A stretch of 64,000 nucleotides of DNA. It comes from Eledone cirrhosa (lineage: Eukaryota). A program made the translations under genes and the position numbers. Shown here piece after piece: positions 13,300 through 51,745 of this stretch. The notes under the pieces are model-generated. The model was given only the letters and a program-made list of their open reading frames with translations, did no database searches and was not told the DNA's origin. Within the stretch, counting starts at the first letter, position 1. Every line of letters begins with the position of its first letter. The stretch covers positions 22,196,001 through 22,260,000 of the forward strand of contig OZ024742.1 in NCBI GenBank assembly GCA_964016885.1, written 5' to 3'.

Positions 13300-16200
13300 A
13301 CCTACCCAATATCCCTCCCACCCGCCCCCACGCACCACCATTATTACGTGGGCCAATCATAAGTCAGCGGCCTATGCTATCACTTACCTGGTTGCCTTTC
13401 GATATGATGGATGGACTACGGAATTCTGGAGAGTTTGAAAATAAAAATCTGGACACTCAGTGACAATGCCAAAGATAAAGACAAATTCACCTCATGCTGC
13501 CGGACGAGAATGCAAGGATTCCTCCTCTTTGTTTCGGCCGCGGATGGCTAACATAACCCCATCTCCCTCACTCCACCCTGCGCCCCACTACTCCCACCCT
13601 CCAAACGCAATTCAAAACTTCAGAGTTGGTACCATGAATGTAGGCACCCTAAAGGGTCGCTCTAACGAGGTTGTAGAAATGCTTGAACGTAAGGAGGTCG
13701 ATGTTTGTTGTATTCAAGAGACCAGGTGGAGGGGTGGGTCTGCTAGGTATATTGTGGGTAAAGAACGATGCTATAAGCTTTTCTGGGTGGGAAATGACAA
13801 TGGGCTGGGTGGAAGCAATCATGGTAGCAGAAAAGTGGGCAGATAAGATAATAGACGTAAATAGGGTGAACGACAGAATAATTAAAATAAGACTTGTCCT
13901 CAATAGAACTACTGTGACAATAATATCTGCATATGCACCACAATCCGGACTGCCTGGCATTATAAAAGACAGATTCTATGAGACATTGATGCTCACTACC
14001 TCCCAAATAACCGACAGTGACTACATAGTTATCGCTGGCGACCTAAATGGTCACGTTGGACAACATTGTGACGGCTATGATGGAATCCATGGAGGCTATG
14101 GGTTTGGTACTAGAAATGAGGAAGGCTCCAGAATCATGGAATTCTGTGACGCAAATAACCTAACTATCTGTAACACTAACTTCAAAAACGAGACAATCAC
14201 TTGATCACTTATAGATCGGGGGGAACACACAAGCCAGGTAGATTATATCCTTACCAGGAGACATGACAGAGTGTCTGTTGTAAACACTAAATCCCTCCCC
14301 CATGAAGAATGCACCTCTCAACATAGACTCATAATTAGCGACGTAGACTCAACATAGACTCATAAAACTCGAGACATACTCGCCAACAGAAGAGGACTAT
14401 CCTCAGGAGAAAAATATGGAAGTTAAAAGACCCCACAGCCAGTAATAAATTTAAAAGCATATTACTTGATGCTTTTGATAGTAAGGAAGAGCAATTAGAG
14501 TCGTACAATATAGAGGAACAGTGGGAATTCCTGAAAGCTAACCTGCTGAAGGCAACAGATGAAACCTGTGGCTGGAGCAGGCCTATAGGCAGGAGGAGAG
14601 TAACTTGGTGGTGGAACAGGAAGGTGGAGGGGTCAATCAAGGCCAAAAAGCAGGCTTGGAAAGCATGGCGGGATGGGAGAAGTAGAGAAGACTATCAAGT
14701 GGCCAGGAGGGAAGCTAGGAGACAAGTGTACTTCGCAAGAAGGGAAGCAGAGGAAAGAAAGTTCAAGCATGTTCTACAACGCGAGGACCAAAAACGTGAG
14801 GTGTTCAGGATTGCTAGGCAATGTGTCAAGGAAAACAGTGATATTGTTGGGGAGAAGTGTGTCCTTAATGATGATGGTGTACTTGCCATCACTGATGCTG
14901 ATAAGAAGGTAGCTTGGAAGTGTCACTACAAAAGGCTACTAAATGAGGAGAATAATTGGGAGAAAGACAATCTCCCCCACATCGACCCAATAGAGGGACC
15001 AGCAGTGCAAGTTGAAAGTAGTATAATAAGTAAGGCGATCAAAGACATGAAGACGGGCAAGGCGGCCGGGCCTTCGGAAATAGTTGCTGAAATGCTGAAA
15101 GCATCTGGAACGGTGGGACACACTATGGTCACCCGGATAGTAAACCAAGTCATACAGAATGGGGTCGTTCCAAAGGACTGGCGCAGCAGCATCATCATTA
15201 ACTGCTACAAGGGAAAAGGTGATGCCTTAGATAGGGGAAACTATAGAGGCATTAAATTAATTGACCAAGTCATGAAGGTCACAGAAAAAGTAATAGCGAC
15301 AACTAATCAGAGAGCGAATTGATCTAGACGAAATGCAGTTCGGGTTTGTGTCAGGTAAAAGTACAACAGACGCTCTCTTCATTGTACGACAACTACAGGA
15401 GAAGTACCGAGCTAAAAGTAAACCCCTATACTTAGCCTTTGTCGACTTGGAGAAAGCTTTCGACAGAGTCCCCCGTTCCATTATCTGGTGGGCTCTTAGA
15501 AAACTAGGTGTTGACGAATGGCTTGTGAGAGCTATACAAGCCATGTATAAAGAAACAGTCAGCAAGGTTAGAATTAACAACGAATATAGTGAAGAGTTTA
15601 GCGTAAAAGTTGGTGTTCATCAGGGCTCCGTCCTTAGCCCCCAACTATTTATTCTTGCCCTTCAGGCTATAACAGAGGAGTTCAAGACTGGCTGCCCATG
15701 GGAACTCCTATATGTAGATGATCTAACGCTCATAGCTGAATCAATGGCTGAACTAGAGAAGAATTTACAAACATGGAAGCATGGCCTAGAATCAAAAGGC
15801 CTTAAAGTTAACTTGTCTAAGACTAAAGTTCTAGTTTGTAGGAAGGAAAATAGGGCACCGGTCCCATCTGGGAAATGGCCATGCTCAGTGTATAGGAAAG
15901 GAGTAGGCAGAAACTCCATTTTATGTCCCAAATGCAAAGTATGGGTGCATAAAAGATGTAGTTGGATCACAGGTAAGCTAACTAAGAATATAGATTTTAT
16001 ATGTGGCCGGTGCTCTGGTGCAATAAGTAGCAGCAAGTGCCCACTGAATACTAGCTCATTCCATTGCACAGATGGTTCTATAGAAATATTGGACAGCTTC
16101 CGTTACCTGGGTGACAAAATCAGCAGTGGGGGAGGGTGCTCTGAAAGTACAGTAGCTAGAGTCAGAACGGGATGGAAAAAGTTCAGAGAGCTTATACCAC

Positions 16201-17056
16201 TATTGGCCGCTAAAGGGTTCTCTCTAAAAATGAAAGGCAGGCTGTATGATGCCTGCATACGAACAGCAATGTTACATGGCAGTGAGACCTGGGCATTGTG
16301 TGCAGAGGATATACACAGACTGGAGAGAAACGAAGCTTGCATGCTCCGCTGGATGTGTAAAAGTAATATACGTGAACGGCAAAGCATAAACGAACTAAGG
16401 GAGAAATTAGGAATAAGAGGGATCAGATGTTGTTTATTTGAGAGAAGACTACGTTGGTACGGTCACGTGATGCACATGAAAGACGACAGCTGTATAAAAA
16501 AGTGCAGGGCGATAAAAATAGACGGTAGCCATGGAGTAGGCAGACCCAGAATAACCTGGGACGACTTGATAAATTCCGACCTCACACACTTACACCTCTC
16601 CAAGACAATGTCACTGGACTGAGATCTTTGGTGCTACACAGTTATACAGAAGACCCGCCTTACCTAAGTACAAAGCGAAACCTACAGTCAGTAGGCACCT
16701 CTAACAAAATACATCCCCGTCCCCACTACCCCCACCCCATCCACACCACCGCCTTAAATGTGAAGTTATGTTGGTACCACAGTCCGAAACAAATGAGGTT
16801 GTGTAGGTGTCATGACAAAAAAAACACACAGTCCACGCTGTAATGTGGCCGTGTAGGTAACACGGTAAAAACCCCCCAGTCCACACTGTAAACGTGGTTG
16901 GTATTAGGAAGGGCATCCAGCCGTAGAAAACCCGCCAGACAGTCCTATACGAGCAGGATAACCAATCTTGCCTCAAGTGGGAAAACTCCCGTCCAAACCC
17001 ATGCAAGCATGGAAGATGGACGTTAAACGATGATGAGGATGATGATGATGATGATG
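13300..17056 (+). mobile_element. Near full-length RTE LINE, frameshifted (APE endonuclease plus RT)
   Basis: GTMNVGTL..IQETRW (ORF 13460), SAYAPQ/GDLNGH (ORF 13683), NYRGIKL (ORF 14624), QFGF/DLEKAFD/YVDD (15333-16622), then 3'UTR and (GAT)n tail. Confidence 0.97.
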
Positions 17057-22217: not shown

Positions 22218-22548
22218 CATCATCATCATCATTTTATGTCCGCTTTTCCCTGCTTGCAAGGGTGGGACGGGAACTGATTCTGGCTTGATTTCTACAGCTG
22301 GATGCCCTTCCTAACACCAACCTCATTTACAGTGAGTGCTGGGTGTTTTTTTGCCATGGCACCTCCATGACCACTTTGCAGTGGAATGATAGGGACCCTA
22401 TCATCTCATTTCTACAGCTGAGTAAACTGGAGCAATGTGAAATAAAGTGTCTTGCTCAAGGAAACAACACATCACTCGGTCTGAGAATTGAACTCACAAC
22501 CTTTCGATTGCAAGTCCAATGCTCTAACCACTAAGCCATCTGCCTCCA
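22213..22548 (-). mobile_element. tRNA-derived SINE with RTE tail
   Basis: Same family as 511-850. Confidence 0.9.
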
Positions 22549-22741: not shown

Positions 22742-22812
22742 GATGTGTTGGTGTAATGGTAGCACAGTGGTCTGGATAACAAAAGATGTGGGTTCGACTC
22801 CCATGTACATCA
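22742..22812 (+). pseudogene. tRNA-like sequence (tRNA pseudogene or SINE head)
   Basis: GATGTG/TACATC acceptor-like stem, A box TGGTGTAATGG, T-loop GGTTCGACTCC. The anticodon stem pairs poorly. Confidence 0.55.
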
Positions 22813-28824: not shown

Positions 28825-29248
28825 TATATCTAACAAACCTGGACCTATATATATATATATATATACATGCATACGTATATATACTACGCATGTGTATATA
28901 TATTATACATATACAATCCTTATCACGTCCTCTTTGCATTTTGGTCTTTGTATTTATTATTACTATATATATATATATCTGCGTTCACAGATTGATTTTT
29001 TTTTGTTTCACAAGATCCCGTTAAGTGTGAAAGCAGCGATTCTTTGCTTAAACTTTAATCTGTTATTTTAATAAATATATAAAAATGTATATATCTATAT
29101 ATATATATATATATAGAAAGGAAGCAGCCATCCTTTGGATGTGCAATGTAAATGTGAGAAAATAGTAGAGTGTGGATTAACTGAGGAAAAACTGGGTCTA
29201 AAAGGAATCCGAAGTGGTGTACAAGGAAAAGATTGCATTGGTATGAAC

Positions 29249-31620
29249 ATTGCTAGGCTATGTGTCAAGGAAAACCGTGATATTGTTGGGGAGAAGTGTG
29301 TACTAAATGATGATGGCGTACTCGCCATCACTGACGCTGATAAGAAGGTCGCTTGGAGGTGTCACTACGAGAGGCTACTAAATGAGGAGAATAAATGGGA
29401 GAAGGATAGTCTCCCCCAGATCGATCCAATAGAGGGACCAGCAGTGTTAGTTGAAGGTAGTATAATAAGTAAGGCGATCAAAGATATGAAGACGGGTAAG
29501 GTGGCTGGGCCTTCGGAAATAGTTGCTGAGATGCTGAAGGCCTCTGGAACGGTGGGACACACCATGGTCACCCGGATAGTAAACCAAGTCATACAGAATG
29601 GGGTTGTTCCGAAGGACTGGCGTAGCAGCATCATCATTAACTGTTACAAGGGTAAAGGAGACGCCCTAGATAGGAGTAACTATAGAGGCATTAAATTAAT
29701 CGACCAGGTCATGAAGGTCACGGAAAAAGTAATAGTGCAACTAATCAGAGAGAGAATCGATCTAGATGAAATGCAGTTCGGGTTTGTGTCAGGCAAAAGT
29801 ACCACAGACACTCTTTTCCTTGTACGACAACTACAGGAGAAGTACCTAGCTAAAAGTAAACCCCTATACTTAGCCTTTGTCGACTTGGAGAAAGCCTTTG
29901 ACAGAGTCCCCCGTTCCATTATCTGGTGGGCTCTTAGAAAACTAGGTGTTCACGAATGGCTTGTGAGAGCTATACAAGCCATGTATAAAGAAACAGTGAG
30001 CAAGGTTAGAATTAACAACGAATATAGTGAAGAGTTTAGCGTAAAAGTTGGTGTCCATCAGGGCTCTCTTCTTAGCCCCCTACTATTCATTATTGCTCTT
30101 CAAGCTATAACAGAGGAGTTCAAGACCGGCTGCCCATGGGAACTCCTATACGCAGATGACCTAACGCTCATAGCTGAATCAATGGCCGAGCTAGAGAAGA
30201 AATTCCAAACATGGAAGCACGGCCTAGAATCAAAAGGCCTTAAAATTAACATGGCTAAGACTAAAGTTCTAGTTTGTAGGAAAGAAAATAAGGCGCCGGT
30301 CCCTTCCGGGAAATGGCCATGCTCAGTGTGTAGGAAAGGCGTAGGTAGAAACTCCATTTTATGTCCCAAATGCAAAGTATGGGTGCATAAAAGATGTAGT
30401 GGGATCACAGGTAAGCTAACTAAGAACACAGATTTTACATGTGGCCGGTGCTCTGGTGCAATAAGTAGCAGCAAGTGCCCACAAAATACTAGCTCTTTCA
30501 ACTGCGCAGAGGGTTCTATAGAAATATTGGACAGCTTCCGTTACCTGGGTGACAAAATCAGCAGTGGGGGAGGGTGCTCCGAAAGTACAGTAGCTAGAGT
30601 CAGAACGGGATGGAAAAAGTTCAGAGAGCTTATACCACTATTAGCTGCTAAAGGGTTCTCCCTAAAAGTGAAGGGCAGGTTGTATGATGCCTGCATACGA
30701 ACAGCAATGTTGCATGGCAGTGAGACCTGGGCATTGTGTGCAGAGGATATACACAGACTAGAGAGGAACGAAGCTTGCATGCTCCGCTGGATGTGTAATA
30801 GTAATATACGCGAACGGCAAAGCATAAACGAACTAAGGAAAAAATTAGAAATAAGAGGGATCAGATGTTGTTTACTCGAGAGAAGGCTACGTTAGTATGG
30901 TCACGTGATGCGCATGAAAGACGACAGCTGTATAACAAAGTGCAGGGCAATAAAGATAGATGGTAGCCACGCAGTAGGCAGACCCAGAAAAACCTGGGAC
31001 GAGCTGATAAATTCCGACCTCACACACTTACACCTCTCCAAGACAATGTCACTGGACCGAGACCTTTGGCGGTACTCAGTAACAGAGAAGACCCGCGTTA
31101 CCTAAATACAAAGTAAAACCTACTACAGTCAGTAGGCATCTCTAACAAAATACACCCCCGTCCCACCACCCCCACCCCATCCACACCGCCCCTTTCAATG
31201 TAAAGTTATGTTGGTGCCACAAAATCCAGGCCGAAACAAATGAGATTGTGTAGGTCTCACGAAAAAAAGACACACAGTCCACGCTGTAATGTGACCGTGT
31301 AGGCAACACGGTAAAAACGTCCCAGCCCCACACTGTAAATGTGGTTGGTGTTAGGAAGGGCATCCAGCTGTAGAAAACCTGCCAGACAGTCCACGCTGTA
31401 ATGTGGCCGTGTAGGCAACACGGTAAAAACCTCCCAGCCCCACACTGTAAATGTGGTTGGTGTTAGGAAGGGCATCCAACTGTAGAAAACCCGCCAGACA
31501 GTCCTATGCGAGCAAGACAACCACTCTTGTCTCAAGTGGGAAAACTCCCGTCCAAACCCATGCAAGCGTGGAACACGGACGTTAAACGATGATGATGATG
31601 ATGATGATGATGATGTGATG
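29249..31620 (+). mobile_element. 5'-truncated RTE LINE with long RT ORF
   Basis: ORF 29135-30895 with YADD and a PHD-like finger, premature TAG at 30893, 3'UTR with a 112-bp duplication, (GAT)n tail. Confidence 0.97.
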
Positions 31621-41737: not shown

Positions 41738-42824
41738 TCATCATCATCATCATCATCAACGTTTAACGTCCGTGTTCCACGCTTGCATGGGTTTGGACGG
41801 GGGTAGTCCCACTTGAGGCAAGAGTGATTGTCTTGCTCGCATAGGACTGTCTGGCAGGTTTTCTACAGTTGGATGCCCTTCCTAACACCAACCACATTTA
41901 CAGTGTGGGTCTGGGAGGTTTTTACCGTGTTGCCTACACGGCCACATTACAGCGTGGACTGTGTGTTTTTTTGTCGTGACACCTACACGATCTCATTTGT
42001 TTCGGCCTCGATGGCGCGGCACCAACATAACTTTACATAGAACGGGGTGGTGTGGATGGGGTGGGGGTGGTGGGACGGGGTGTATTTTGTTAGAGATGCC
42101 TACTGGCTGGAGTAGGTTTTACTATATATTTAGGTAAGGCGGGTCTTCTCTGTTACTGAGTACCGCCAAAGGTCTCGGTCCAGTGACATTGTCTTGGAGA
42201 GGTGTAAGTGTGTGATGTCGGAGTTTATCAGCTCGTCCCAGGTTTTTCTAGGTCTGCCTATTCCGTGACTACCGTCTATCTTTATTGCCCTGCACTTTGT
42301 TATACAGCTATCGACTTTCATGCGCATCACGTGTCCATACCAACGTCGCCTTCTCTCGAGTAAACAACATCTGATCCCTCTTATCTCTAATTTTTTCCTT
42401 AGTTCGTTTATGCTTTGCCGTTCACGTATATTACTGTTACACATCCAGCGGAGCATGCAAGCTTCGTTCCTCTCTAGTCTGCGTATATCCTCTGCACACA
42501 ATGCCCAGGTCTCACTGCCATGCAGCATTGCTGTTCGTATGCAGGCATCGTACAACCTGCCTTTCATTTTTAGTGAGAACCCTTTAGCAGCTAATAGTGG
42601 TATAAGCTCTCTGAACTTTTTCCAACCAGTTCTGACTCTAGCTACAGTACTTTCAGAGCACCCTCCCCCACTGCTGATTTTATCGCCCAGGTAACGGAAG
42701 CTGTCCACTATTTCTATCGAACCCTCTGCGCAATTGAAAGAGCTAGTAGTTTGTGGGCACTTGCTGCTACTTATTGCACCAGAGCACCGGCCACATGTAA
42801 AATCTATGTTCTTAGTTAGCTTAC

Positions 42825-42828
<4 letters not shown>
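41738..42828 (-). mobile_element. 5'-truncated RTE LINE, uninterrupted C-terminal frame
   Basis: ORF 42130-42885 (TGKLTKN...EKTRLT), 3'UTR and tail. Confidence 0.95.
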
Positions 42829-42858
<30 letters not shown>

Positions 42859-42864
<6 letters not shown>

Positions 42865-43762
42865 GTTAAAAATGTACATCCACATATGTATACTGAAACA
42901 CTAGTATGCACATGATTACACACACGTATACATATGTAGATGTACCGAGTTTTTCACTGGTCACTTTACTGTGAGTGTCCAGCTATTCTGTATGTAAACA
43001 CACAGACAAACCGGCTTTTAGAGTCATACAGGTTTTTGAGGAAACACCTTTCCTCTATTCTCCAGAAAGCCAGACAAGGAATATTGAACTAGTTTCGATG
43101 TTGTTACATCTCATCAGCAATATTTACCTATCTTCCGGCATCTCTAGAGAATCGTAAAAGCACATATCGTTATATGCTTTTTCTATGAAAATTAGTAGTG
43201 GGCAGACTAACTTGCATAGAGCGTAAGTACGTACCGGTTCAACGGAGACGATAAAAACAAATAACGAAACGAAATTTAATTCCGTTTCGTTATTTGTTTT
43301 TATCGTCTCCGTTGAACCGGTACGTACTTACGCTCTATGCAAGTTAGTCTGCCCACTACTAATTTTCATAGAAAAAGCATATAACGATATGTGCTTTTAC
43401 GATTCTCTAGAGATGCCGGAAGATAGGTAAATATTGCTGATGAGATGTAACAACATCGAAACTAGTTCAATATTCCTTGTCTGGCTTTCTGGAGAATAGA
43501 GGAAAGGTGTTTCCTCAAAAACCTGTATGACTCTAAAAGCCGGTTTGTCTGTGTGTTTACATACAGAATAGCTGGACACTCACAGTAAAGTGACCAGTGA
43601 AAAACTCGGTACATCTACATATGTATACGTGTGTGTAATCATGTGCATACTAGTGTTTCAGTATACATATGTGGATGTACATTTTTAACTTAATTGTTTA
43701 AGCGTCTGTCATACAAAAGTGAGTTACAAACGAAACGAAATTTAATTCCGTTTCGTTATTTG

Positions 43763-43768
<6 letters not shown>
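42859..43768. mobile_element. Palindromic HHR element, family E (413-bp arms; 466-bp monomer plus 40-bp terminal redundancy)
   Basis: 42859-43271 is the reverse complement of 43283-43695. 43263-43302 is repeated at 43729-43768. (TA)n on both sides. Confidence 0.95.
43430..43474 (+). ncRNA. Canonical minimal type I hammerhead ribozyme (mirror copy 43080-43124, minus)
   Basis: AATATTG-CTGATGA-GATGT-aaca-ACATC-GAA-ACTAGT-T-CAATATT. Predicted cut after GUU at 43467. Confidence 0.9.
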
Positions 43769-43796
<28 letters not shown>

Positions 43797-43798
<2 letters not shown>

Positions 43799-43887
43799 GG
43801 GTGTCCCCAAAAGCTGTATACACACTTTGATTACCTGTACTGGCAATATTTATGTTGAAATGTGTATACATTTTTGGGGACATCATG
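43797..43887. mobile_element. Tc1/mariner-type MITE, about 90 bp
   Basis: TA|CAGGGTGTCCCCAAAAGCTGTATACAC ... GTGTATACATTTTTGGGGACATCATG|TA. Confidence 0.75.
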
Positions 43888-49960: not shown

Positions 49961-51676
<1,716 letters not shown>

Positions 51677-51745
51677 CTAGTGGTTAGAGCATTGGGCTTG
51701 CAATCGAAAGGTTGTGAGTTCAATATATATATATATATAGAGAGA

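Follow-up and report, generated by a model that had tools for sequence, protein, structure and literature searches.

Probable two-ended insertion of a young hammerhead retrozyme family into (TA)n targets of Eledone cirrhosa

Known relatives and the palindromic locus

We compared the palindromic insertion analyzed here to the closest described mobile elements. Animal non-LTR retrozymes (PMC7229834; 10.64898/2026.07.22.740005) share with it non-coding tandem units carrying one type I hammerhead each, a GC content of 36%, sizes from dimers to 31-mers and co-occurring Penelope-like elements (PLEs). In axolotl HHR_Amex1, stem III again consists of one pair and a palindromic tetraloop, and this form (palindromic CUAG in our unit) is called dimer-dependent in axolotl (PMC7229834). 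The 466-nt unit is longer than the 150-450-bp range of PMC7229834 but lies within the 51-972 bp of 10.64898/2026.07.22.740005. Head-to-head arms with fixed, paired ends are not described in the available text of these papers (the word 'inverted' occurs 0 times in that of PMC7229834), and their supplements may describe inverted copies. A circular template for retrozymes has been proposed (PMC7229834). In the present family, transcription, ribozyme cleavage and the circle are predictions.

The second group comprises the EN+ PLEs Penelope/Poseidon, Neptune and Naiad (PMC8557442, PMC3846280, PMC11167929). They resemble our family in their partial tandems, inverted 5'-truncated arm and one-sided tail, in their AT-rich or (TA)n targets, in having two internal reverse transcriptase (RT) start sites, and in that both target strands are cut and extended. 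This layout of partial tandems, inverted truncated copy and one-sided tail is given in PMC8557442, where the origin of the inverted arms and the tail is stated as open, and in PMC11167929 the tail is the stretch between the two RT start sites. Self-priming at PLE palindromes was already proposed in PMC3846280, and the idea of a self-priming hairpin is thus not itself new. Unlike EN+ PLEs, the retrozyme has no ORF, its tail measures 68-74 nt rather than 30-40 bp, and its two sites are paired on opposite ends, whereas the PAc assay of PMC11167929 saw no strand difference in the start site. The retrozyme also has no homology to the pLTR of any PLE sampled.

A third comparison is offered by twin priming of L1, in which both target ends prime a cDNA on a single RNA and microhomology links the two, yielding an inversion. 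Two-end priming on one RNA and the microhomology join recur in our model. In contrast to L1, the retrozyme priming sites are fixed, internal and ~70 nt apart, there is no poly(A), and its arms, either of which can be a multimer, have sequence in common.

The locus lies in a 64,000-nt stretch of DNA, here called the window. Its features are given below in window coordinates, with monomer position m1 set at 43263:

42828-42859, no strand: left (TA)16 target microsatellite, read from the sequence
42859-43271, minus: arm B, monomer m433 down to m21; its outer end is the family site B (m433-439), which abuts (TA)n genome-wide
43073-43132, minus: type I hammerhead of arm B, the mirror copy, with extended stem I (Rfam HH9 match at 43064-43135)
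43263-43291, plus: internal hairpin, m1-29, with a 9-bp stem and an 11-nt loop; the stem is the 9-nt overlap joining both arms, and the loop is in arm-A orientation
43263-43769, plus: arm A of 507 nt, made up of a 466-nt unit and 41 nt more; its outer end is the family site A (m41)
43337-43344, plus: octamer-like motif that reads ATGCAAAT in most family copies and also in a sister family; the window copy differs by one A>G
43422-43481, plus: type I hammerhead with a 13-pair stem I containing a UA bulge, a 5-bp stem II, and a 1-bp stem III capped by palindromic CUAG
43609-43680, plus: long internal hairpin, m347-418, which the sister family shares
43696-43769, plus: PLE-type 'tail', 74 nt between start sites B and A, on one arm only
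43767-43793, no strand: right (TA)n target microsatellite, read from the sequence

The arms at 42859-43271 and 43283-43695 are exact reverse complements of 413 bp each with 0 mismatches, and the only unpaired positions within 42859-43695 (43272/43282 and the center, 43277) all lie in the 11-nt loop. Positions 43263-43303 recur exactly at 43729-43769, a repeat of 41 nt at a spacing of 466 whose last T also counts in the TA run. The window copy holds 1.09 + 0.89 units. When the monomer is circularized, its longest stop-free frame is 60 aa; the RT plus GIY-YIG ORF of an autonomous EN+ PLE is absent from the element. The original prediction had described a perfect palindrome flanked on both sides by (TA)n, lacking a credible ORF, with a turn sequence at 43263 that recurs at 43729 to define a 466-bp monomer and with the hairpin as a built-in piece of it, and all of this holds. 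Its proposal that copying went past a whole unit of a circular or tandem RNA is supported as well. Its 40-bp terminal redundancy is a real repeat, yet one of 41 nt that only reflects where arm A stops, 507 nt from site A, and it represents no defined feature. We take the octamer-like motif to be a candidate snRNA-type promoter element. Rfam miRNA and snoRNA matches at the locus fall under gathering and reflect its hairpins.

The hammerhead cores (43430-43474 on the plus and 43080-43124 on the minus strand) are both recognized by Rfam HH9 with 36.5 bits (E 2.4e-7), short of the gathering score of 52, and no Rfam match here reaches gathering. Cleavage is predicted after GUU at 43467, with GUC in its place in 20 of 80 loci. 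The type I assignment and the positions of one hammerhead per arm were thus correctly called, whereas the description as a canonical minimal ribozyme, with the short helices known from PLE pLTRs, does not fit a stem I that extends to 13 pairs across the UA bulge and shows covariation (over the whole ribozyme, 6 of 19 pairs are altered on both sides in five rows drawn from the family and its sister family). The core is almost invariant, and stem II carries a compensatory swap in 33 of 80 loci. Each unit contains a type I hammerhead, and we found 3,582 exact core matches genome-wide (0 for a control pattern), many spaced 466-470 bp. From this conservation and covariation, a self-cleaving retrozyme RNA is predicted. 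The view of the element as retrozyme-type and related to PLEs, with a predicted type I hammerhead of the dimer kind, is supported. A search with Hammerhead_1 for a partner element returned an unrelated ribozyme family only. This second abundant hammerhead family (L226-L243) scores over the Hammerhead_1 cut-off, and two of its loci, L241 and L242, form an inverted pair.

Family census and paired insertion ends

A search of the genome with the monomer gave 412 candidate places, 39 of which were scored. By exact pattern matching we located 1,940 junctions between site A and (TA)n, and 573 forward-strand matches for site B next to (TA)n, with 0 matches for either control pattern; the reverse-strand count for site B is inflated by a variable gap in the pattern. 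The element belongs to a young family of non-LTR retrozymes, whose 466-base repeat encodes no protein and is inserted at ~2,000 places in the genome. Insertions are laid out as (TA)n, inverted arm, join, direct arm, (TA)n. The outer ends are fixed at m41 (site A) on one side and m433-439 (site B) on the other, 68-74 nt apart. The inner joins are variable, with arm lengths from <20 nt to ~14 kb. An inverted truncated arm and a one-sided tail between two fixed ends, as looked for in a PLE-mobilized non-autonomous element, are therefore present.

Two junction samples were used to assess the pairing of the ends. To limit bias, we followed contig C1 in chromosome order for the first sample and took the earliest 60 A junctions in regions new to our set; with one close pair counted once, these represent 59 distinct loci. 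An inverted B arm was found at 44 of them (36 arms of at least 30 nt, one of these placed by coordinates only, and eight of 7-16 nt), no visible second arm at nine and another outer end at four; two ran off the region. Among the resolved loci of this sample there were no A+A insertions. The second sample comprised the first 40 distinct B junctions, 21 already in our set and 19 new, and 35 of these had an A partner, four had no second arm and one was a three-armed B..B insertion. The best-match sample agrees with the A+B rule, yet it includes an A+A case with partly discordant arms (L039) and a near-A+A case (L049); L188 is B..B. A scan for target-site duplications, which in non-LTR retrozymes exceed 4 bp when present, found no excess (18/74 loci versus 52/216 in the control), and single clear duplications with non-TA letters occur at L134 (48 bp) and L191 (56 bp).

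A diverged sister family (L166:8300-9500, L169:1900-2460, and pieces in L178 and L182) has a ~500-bp unit that is 72-77% alike in places and has the whole unit plan in common. It contains the octamer and the long hairpin, its compensatory ribozyme carries a GUA site, and a motif in the tail is conserved. Read-derived contigs contain both junction types, with loose TA ends behind 43303 and 43695. Contigs from run X6, whose run type is not given, extend over the entire unit; contigs cannot reveal circles. Among the runs screened, none with raw RNA contained the unit, and we give no weight to RNA entries with a share of 0.04. Runs X4, X5 and X7, labeled as three other organisms (B, C and D), also contain contigs closely matching the unit, and those of X4 and X7 cross the unit junction. 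Transfer has to be weighed here against contamination or mislabeling; run X21, labeled organism B, gave 0 reads on the window locus.

The element itself is ordinary, being another, new animal retrozyme family, here with a probable two-ended insertion of PLE type. The value lies in the census, as a short, young passenger of ~2,000 copies allows nesting, haplotype and end pairing to be counted. Tests of nesting, haplotype and end pairing, or of array variants, were not found in the main texts of the open-access literature searched.

Two proposed priming sites on a shared template

We next consider whether the two arms have a common source. Arms of the same insertion share their haplotype: with up to 47 diagnostic sites compared, 0-1 differences separate the arms at 62 of 67 two-armed loci, versus 8% of random arm pairs. 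This includes the non-nested loci open to the haplotype test, in which neither arm lies inside the other and 7/7 differ at no diagnostic site; non-nested L143 has a private variant in both arms. Both arms thus derive from one template. Microhomology of at least 3 nt was found at 22 of 47 filler-free junctions, versus 6.8% in the null; 35 of 82 junction calls had fillers or poor alignment, and automated calls with a large negative overlap, which came from diverged copies, were replaced by hand-read BLAST coordinates. For two cDNAs of like sense, pairing is restricted to inverted homologies, of which the hairpin stem and A-run/T-run pairs are examples; joins of the latter kind are seen in L043, L045 and L057.

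It is likely, at a probability of roughly three in four, that each arm is a reverse transcript in its own right, made on a shared RNA template at one of the two ends of a (TA)n cut, probably by a Penelope-like enzyme, and that the pair was joined at the hairpin for its 9-nt complementarity. A tandem array would be transcribed, would cleave itself at GUH and would be ligated to a 466-nt circle, as the motif and PMC7229834 suggest. The GIY-YIG/RT protein of a PLE may then nick both strands of (TA)n; here the TA flanks are observed and the enzyme is a presumed one. Synthesis would begin from m41 (site A) on one DNA end and from m433-439 (site B) on the other, two positions separated by 68-74 nt; the ends are observed, and priming is modeled on PMC11167929. 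Each cDNA would run for a variable, independent length, observed up to ~31 units, probably by rolling around the circle. The same-sense cDNA 3' ends could then pair at a short inverted homology, for which the observed microhomology speaks, and be filled in by repair. In the window copy, each arm would have ended after roughly a single turn, and their meeting in the hairpin would account for the perfect palindrome; the 9-nt complementarity of the hairpin stem is the likely reason for their joining there.

The layout recurs in autonomous PLEs of the genome. Autonomous RT+GIY-YIG elements have inverted arms of up to 100% identity, TA flanks and one-arm tails of ~40-65 nt. Three are very young (L211, L215 and L216; G000 C4:233.39M, C2:69.85M and C4:361.56M), with inverted arms of 2.3-3.9 kb at 99.9-100% identity and, in L215 and L216, a ~40-nt tail on one arm. 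Their family has many copies with open frames of ~900 aa and near-identical young copies. Further PLE families with a CxxC before GIY-YIG (L157, L161, L164, L167 and L169), which we take to be Neptune-like, have one-arm tails of ~41-65 nt and TA flanks. A pLTR resembling the monomer was found in 0 of 49 PLE-selected loci by low-stringency BLAST, out of 10,596 GIY-YIG candidates, and the search for a partner by GIY-YIG, by protein search and by BLAST of the 49 loci returned only neighboring retrozyme insertions. Against two-ended priming stand the lack of a PLE partner among these 49 loci, a tail of 68-74 nt versus the published 30-40 bp, an over-representation of joins at the hairpin, the end pairs of L039 and L188, and a target-site-duplication scan at control level.

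We investigated the arrays for traces of their template. They reach ~31 units (L099). In young arrays, the units of one locus are clonal and set it apart from other loci; at several loci, arrays of 1.6-6.9 kb disagree internally at 0.0% of positions and diverge from the family by 0.4-2.6%. Private variants occur in all 11-16 units of both arms in L044, L111, L172, L043 and L063; L172 (G000 C5:113.17M) is an array of 460-bp units, with all 11 alike in both arms. On the ribozyme strand, variants fixed in all units covering the site comprise 29 A>G versus 11 T>C at 87 loci, whereas single-unit variants comprise 25 versus 26 (Fisher p 0.03 for fixed versus single-unit). Strictly private fixed variants are A>G in ten cases and T>C in one, and three of these ten A>G are found in both arms of the window copy (43539, 43643 and 43655). 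In a more diverged subset there is no bias among all fixed variants (18 versus 18), with strictly private ones at 5 versus 2. A 5' G precedes 1/29 of the A>G sites and is depleted, as expected of ADAR, and a 3' G follows 3/29, which is no excess. That strand-biased changes sit in all units, in both arms alike, speaks for repeated reading of a lone single-stranded unit, in line with rolling on the monomer circle proposed in PMC7229834. The clonal arrays and the A>G bias together suggest that a monomer, possibly an edited one, was copied by rolling circle; the bias could also come from wrong polarity, or from errors of RT or a polymerase, instead of editing.

We tentatively consider, at somewhat less than even odds, that one circular 466-nt RNA edited by ADAR serves a dimeric Penelope-like enzyme as template, with two cDNAs begun on it ~70 nt from each other and extended around it up to 31 times. 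Each of the ~2,000 insertions would then be the record of a single reaction. The clonal arrays and strand-biased fixed variants make the circular-template proposal of PMC7229834 testable. If this circular, edited reading is true, the arrays would be genomic evidence for circle-templated retrotransposition, a two-ended account of PLE inverted arms and tails would replace self-priming, and a route would exist for A-to-I edits into heritable DNA changes.

The template of a two-ended insertion could also be linear, a long transcript reading through a clonal source array, with no need for a circle; we consider this possible but rather unlikely. Long arrays exist, as the 31-unit L099 shows, ribozyme cleavage is dispensable in vitro (PMC11167929), and inner ends are slightly in excess at the ribozyme cut (7 versus 3.3 expected, p 0.05). 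L035, L041 and L063 moreover show higher-order patterns, with unit variants that alternate or recur at period 3/4, which may reflect multimeric circles or later duplication. A linear template, however, can only shorten arrays, and a strand-biased variant in all units requires one unit copied repeatedly; the near-invariant ribozyme core and the compensatory changes in stem II also speak against it.

It is improbable that arrays and arm identity arose after insertion by unequal exchange and gene conversion, as in the satellite model of 10.64898/2026.07.22.740005. The periodic, duplicated variants of L035 and L041 and the mosaic units of L063 would be expected from such a process, but either of the inverted arms can hold an array, the arrays terminate precisely at site A or site B, and arms that are non-overlapping or non-nested still share haplotypes. 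Change at the DNA level would in addition be strand-symmetric, as it is for the single-unit variants.

Joins at the hairpin

In the original prediction, a single cDNA turns on the internal hairpin (m1-29) and serves as primer for its second strand, making the element a hairpin-primed replicon. The window copy fits this description, with arm B nested in arm A, identical arms and the three private A>G in both. Where one arm served as template for its partner, the two have to be nested. We analyzed nesting in 55 position-ordered A+B loci, 45 of them with both arms of at least 30 nt. In 10 of these 45 the arms are non-nested and cannot be mutual copies, versus 13.8 expected if arm lengths are independent (95% range 9-19) and 0 under snap-back. 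The lengths of arms A and B are uncorrelated (rho 0.06), and mirror lengths occur in 4/45.

Joins at the hairpin account for 3 of the 55 position-ordered copies (L112, L129 and L187), versus ~0.4 expected by a rough estimate, and they recur when L053 is included. In hand-read BLAST coordinates, inner arm ends fall inside the hairpin in 21 of 195 cases versus 12.1 expected (unadjusted p 0.01), and turns are symmetric in 16 of 74 versus 11.3 by chance. L187 has the exact turn of the window copy, with the loop in arm-A orientation, but its A arm of ~41 nt is too short to have templated the B arm of 418 nt. The hairpin is thus a mild hot spot for joining, not the mechanism. Short fold-back fillers at some junctions (L038, L150) indicate that transient snap-back does happen, and at the window copy alone it may have acted, given the nesting of arm B in arm A. 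It leaves the near-constant pairing of A at one end with B at the other unexplained. The original prediction had named beforehand, as an observation that would speak against it, turn points in other copies that are unrelated to the hairpin, and this is what the genome-wide copies show for most turn points. As the family mechanism, snap-back is refuted, and we rate this rival reading overall as highly improbable; the counts reject self-priming for this retrozyme family in favor of two-ended priming. Seven A arms stop at m67-68 (window 43329-43330), versus 0.8 expected, in a post hoc comparison that is borderline in a scan test; these stops may mark a transcript 5' end or an RT stop.

A fold-back artefact of assembly or library is extremely improbable, since the 0 mismatches and the want of a single read record across the locus (the RAD reads of X23 come from other copies, and the Logan contigs of X1 and X2 are short) are outweighed by sides that differ beyond the arms (74-nt tail, different flanks), by both junction types in read-derived contigs and by the same layout in dozens of loci, diverged ones included. 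A chimera is unlikely for the window copy, too, as its right arm has 74 nt and a flank that are missing at the left, and its ends obey the A+B rule.

Other repeats lie close to the insertion. Directly to its right, a small TA-flanked, MITE-like element with terminal inverted repeats occupies window positions 43795-43887. On the left, a high-copy repeat at 42130-42827 on the minus strand, probably a LINE piece, ends exactly at the left TA run; its intact homologues continue without TA. Elsewhere in the window, RT open frames are found at 29117-30895, there with a PHD finger, and at 15297-16622, and tRNA-like Rfam matches beside TA runs at 22481-22538, 22742-22812 and 51666-51737 are probably SINE heads.
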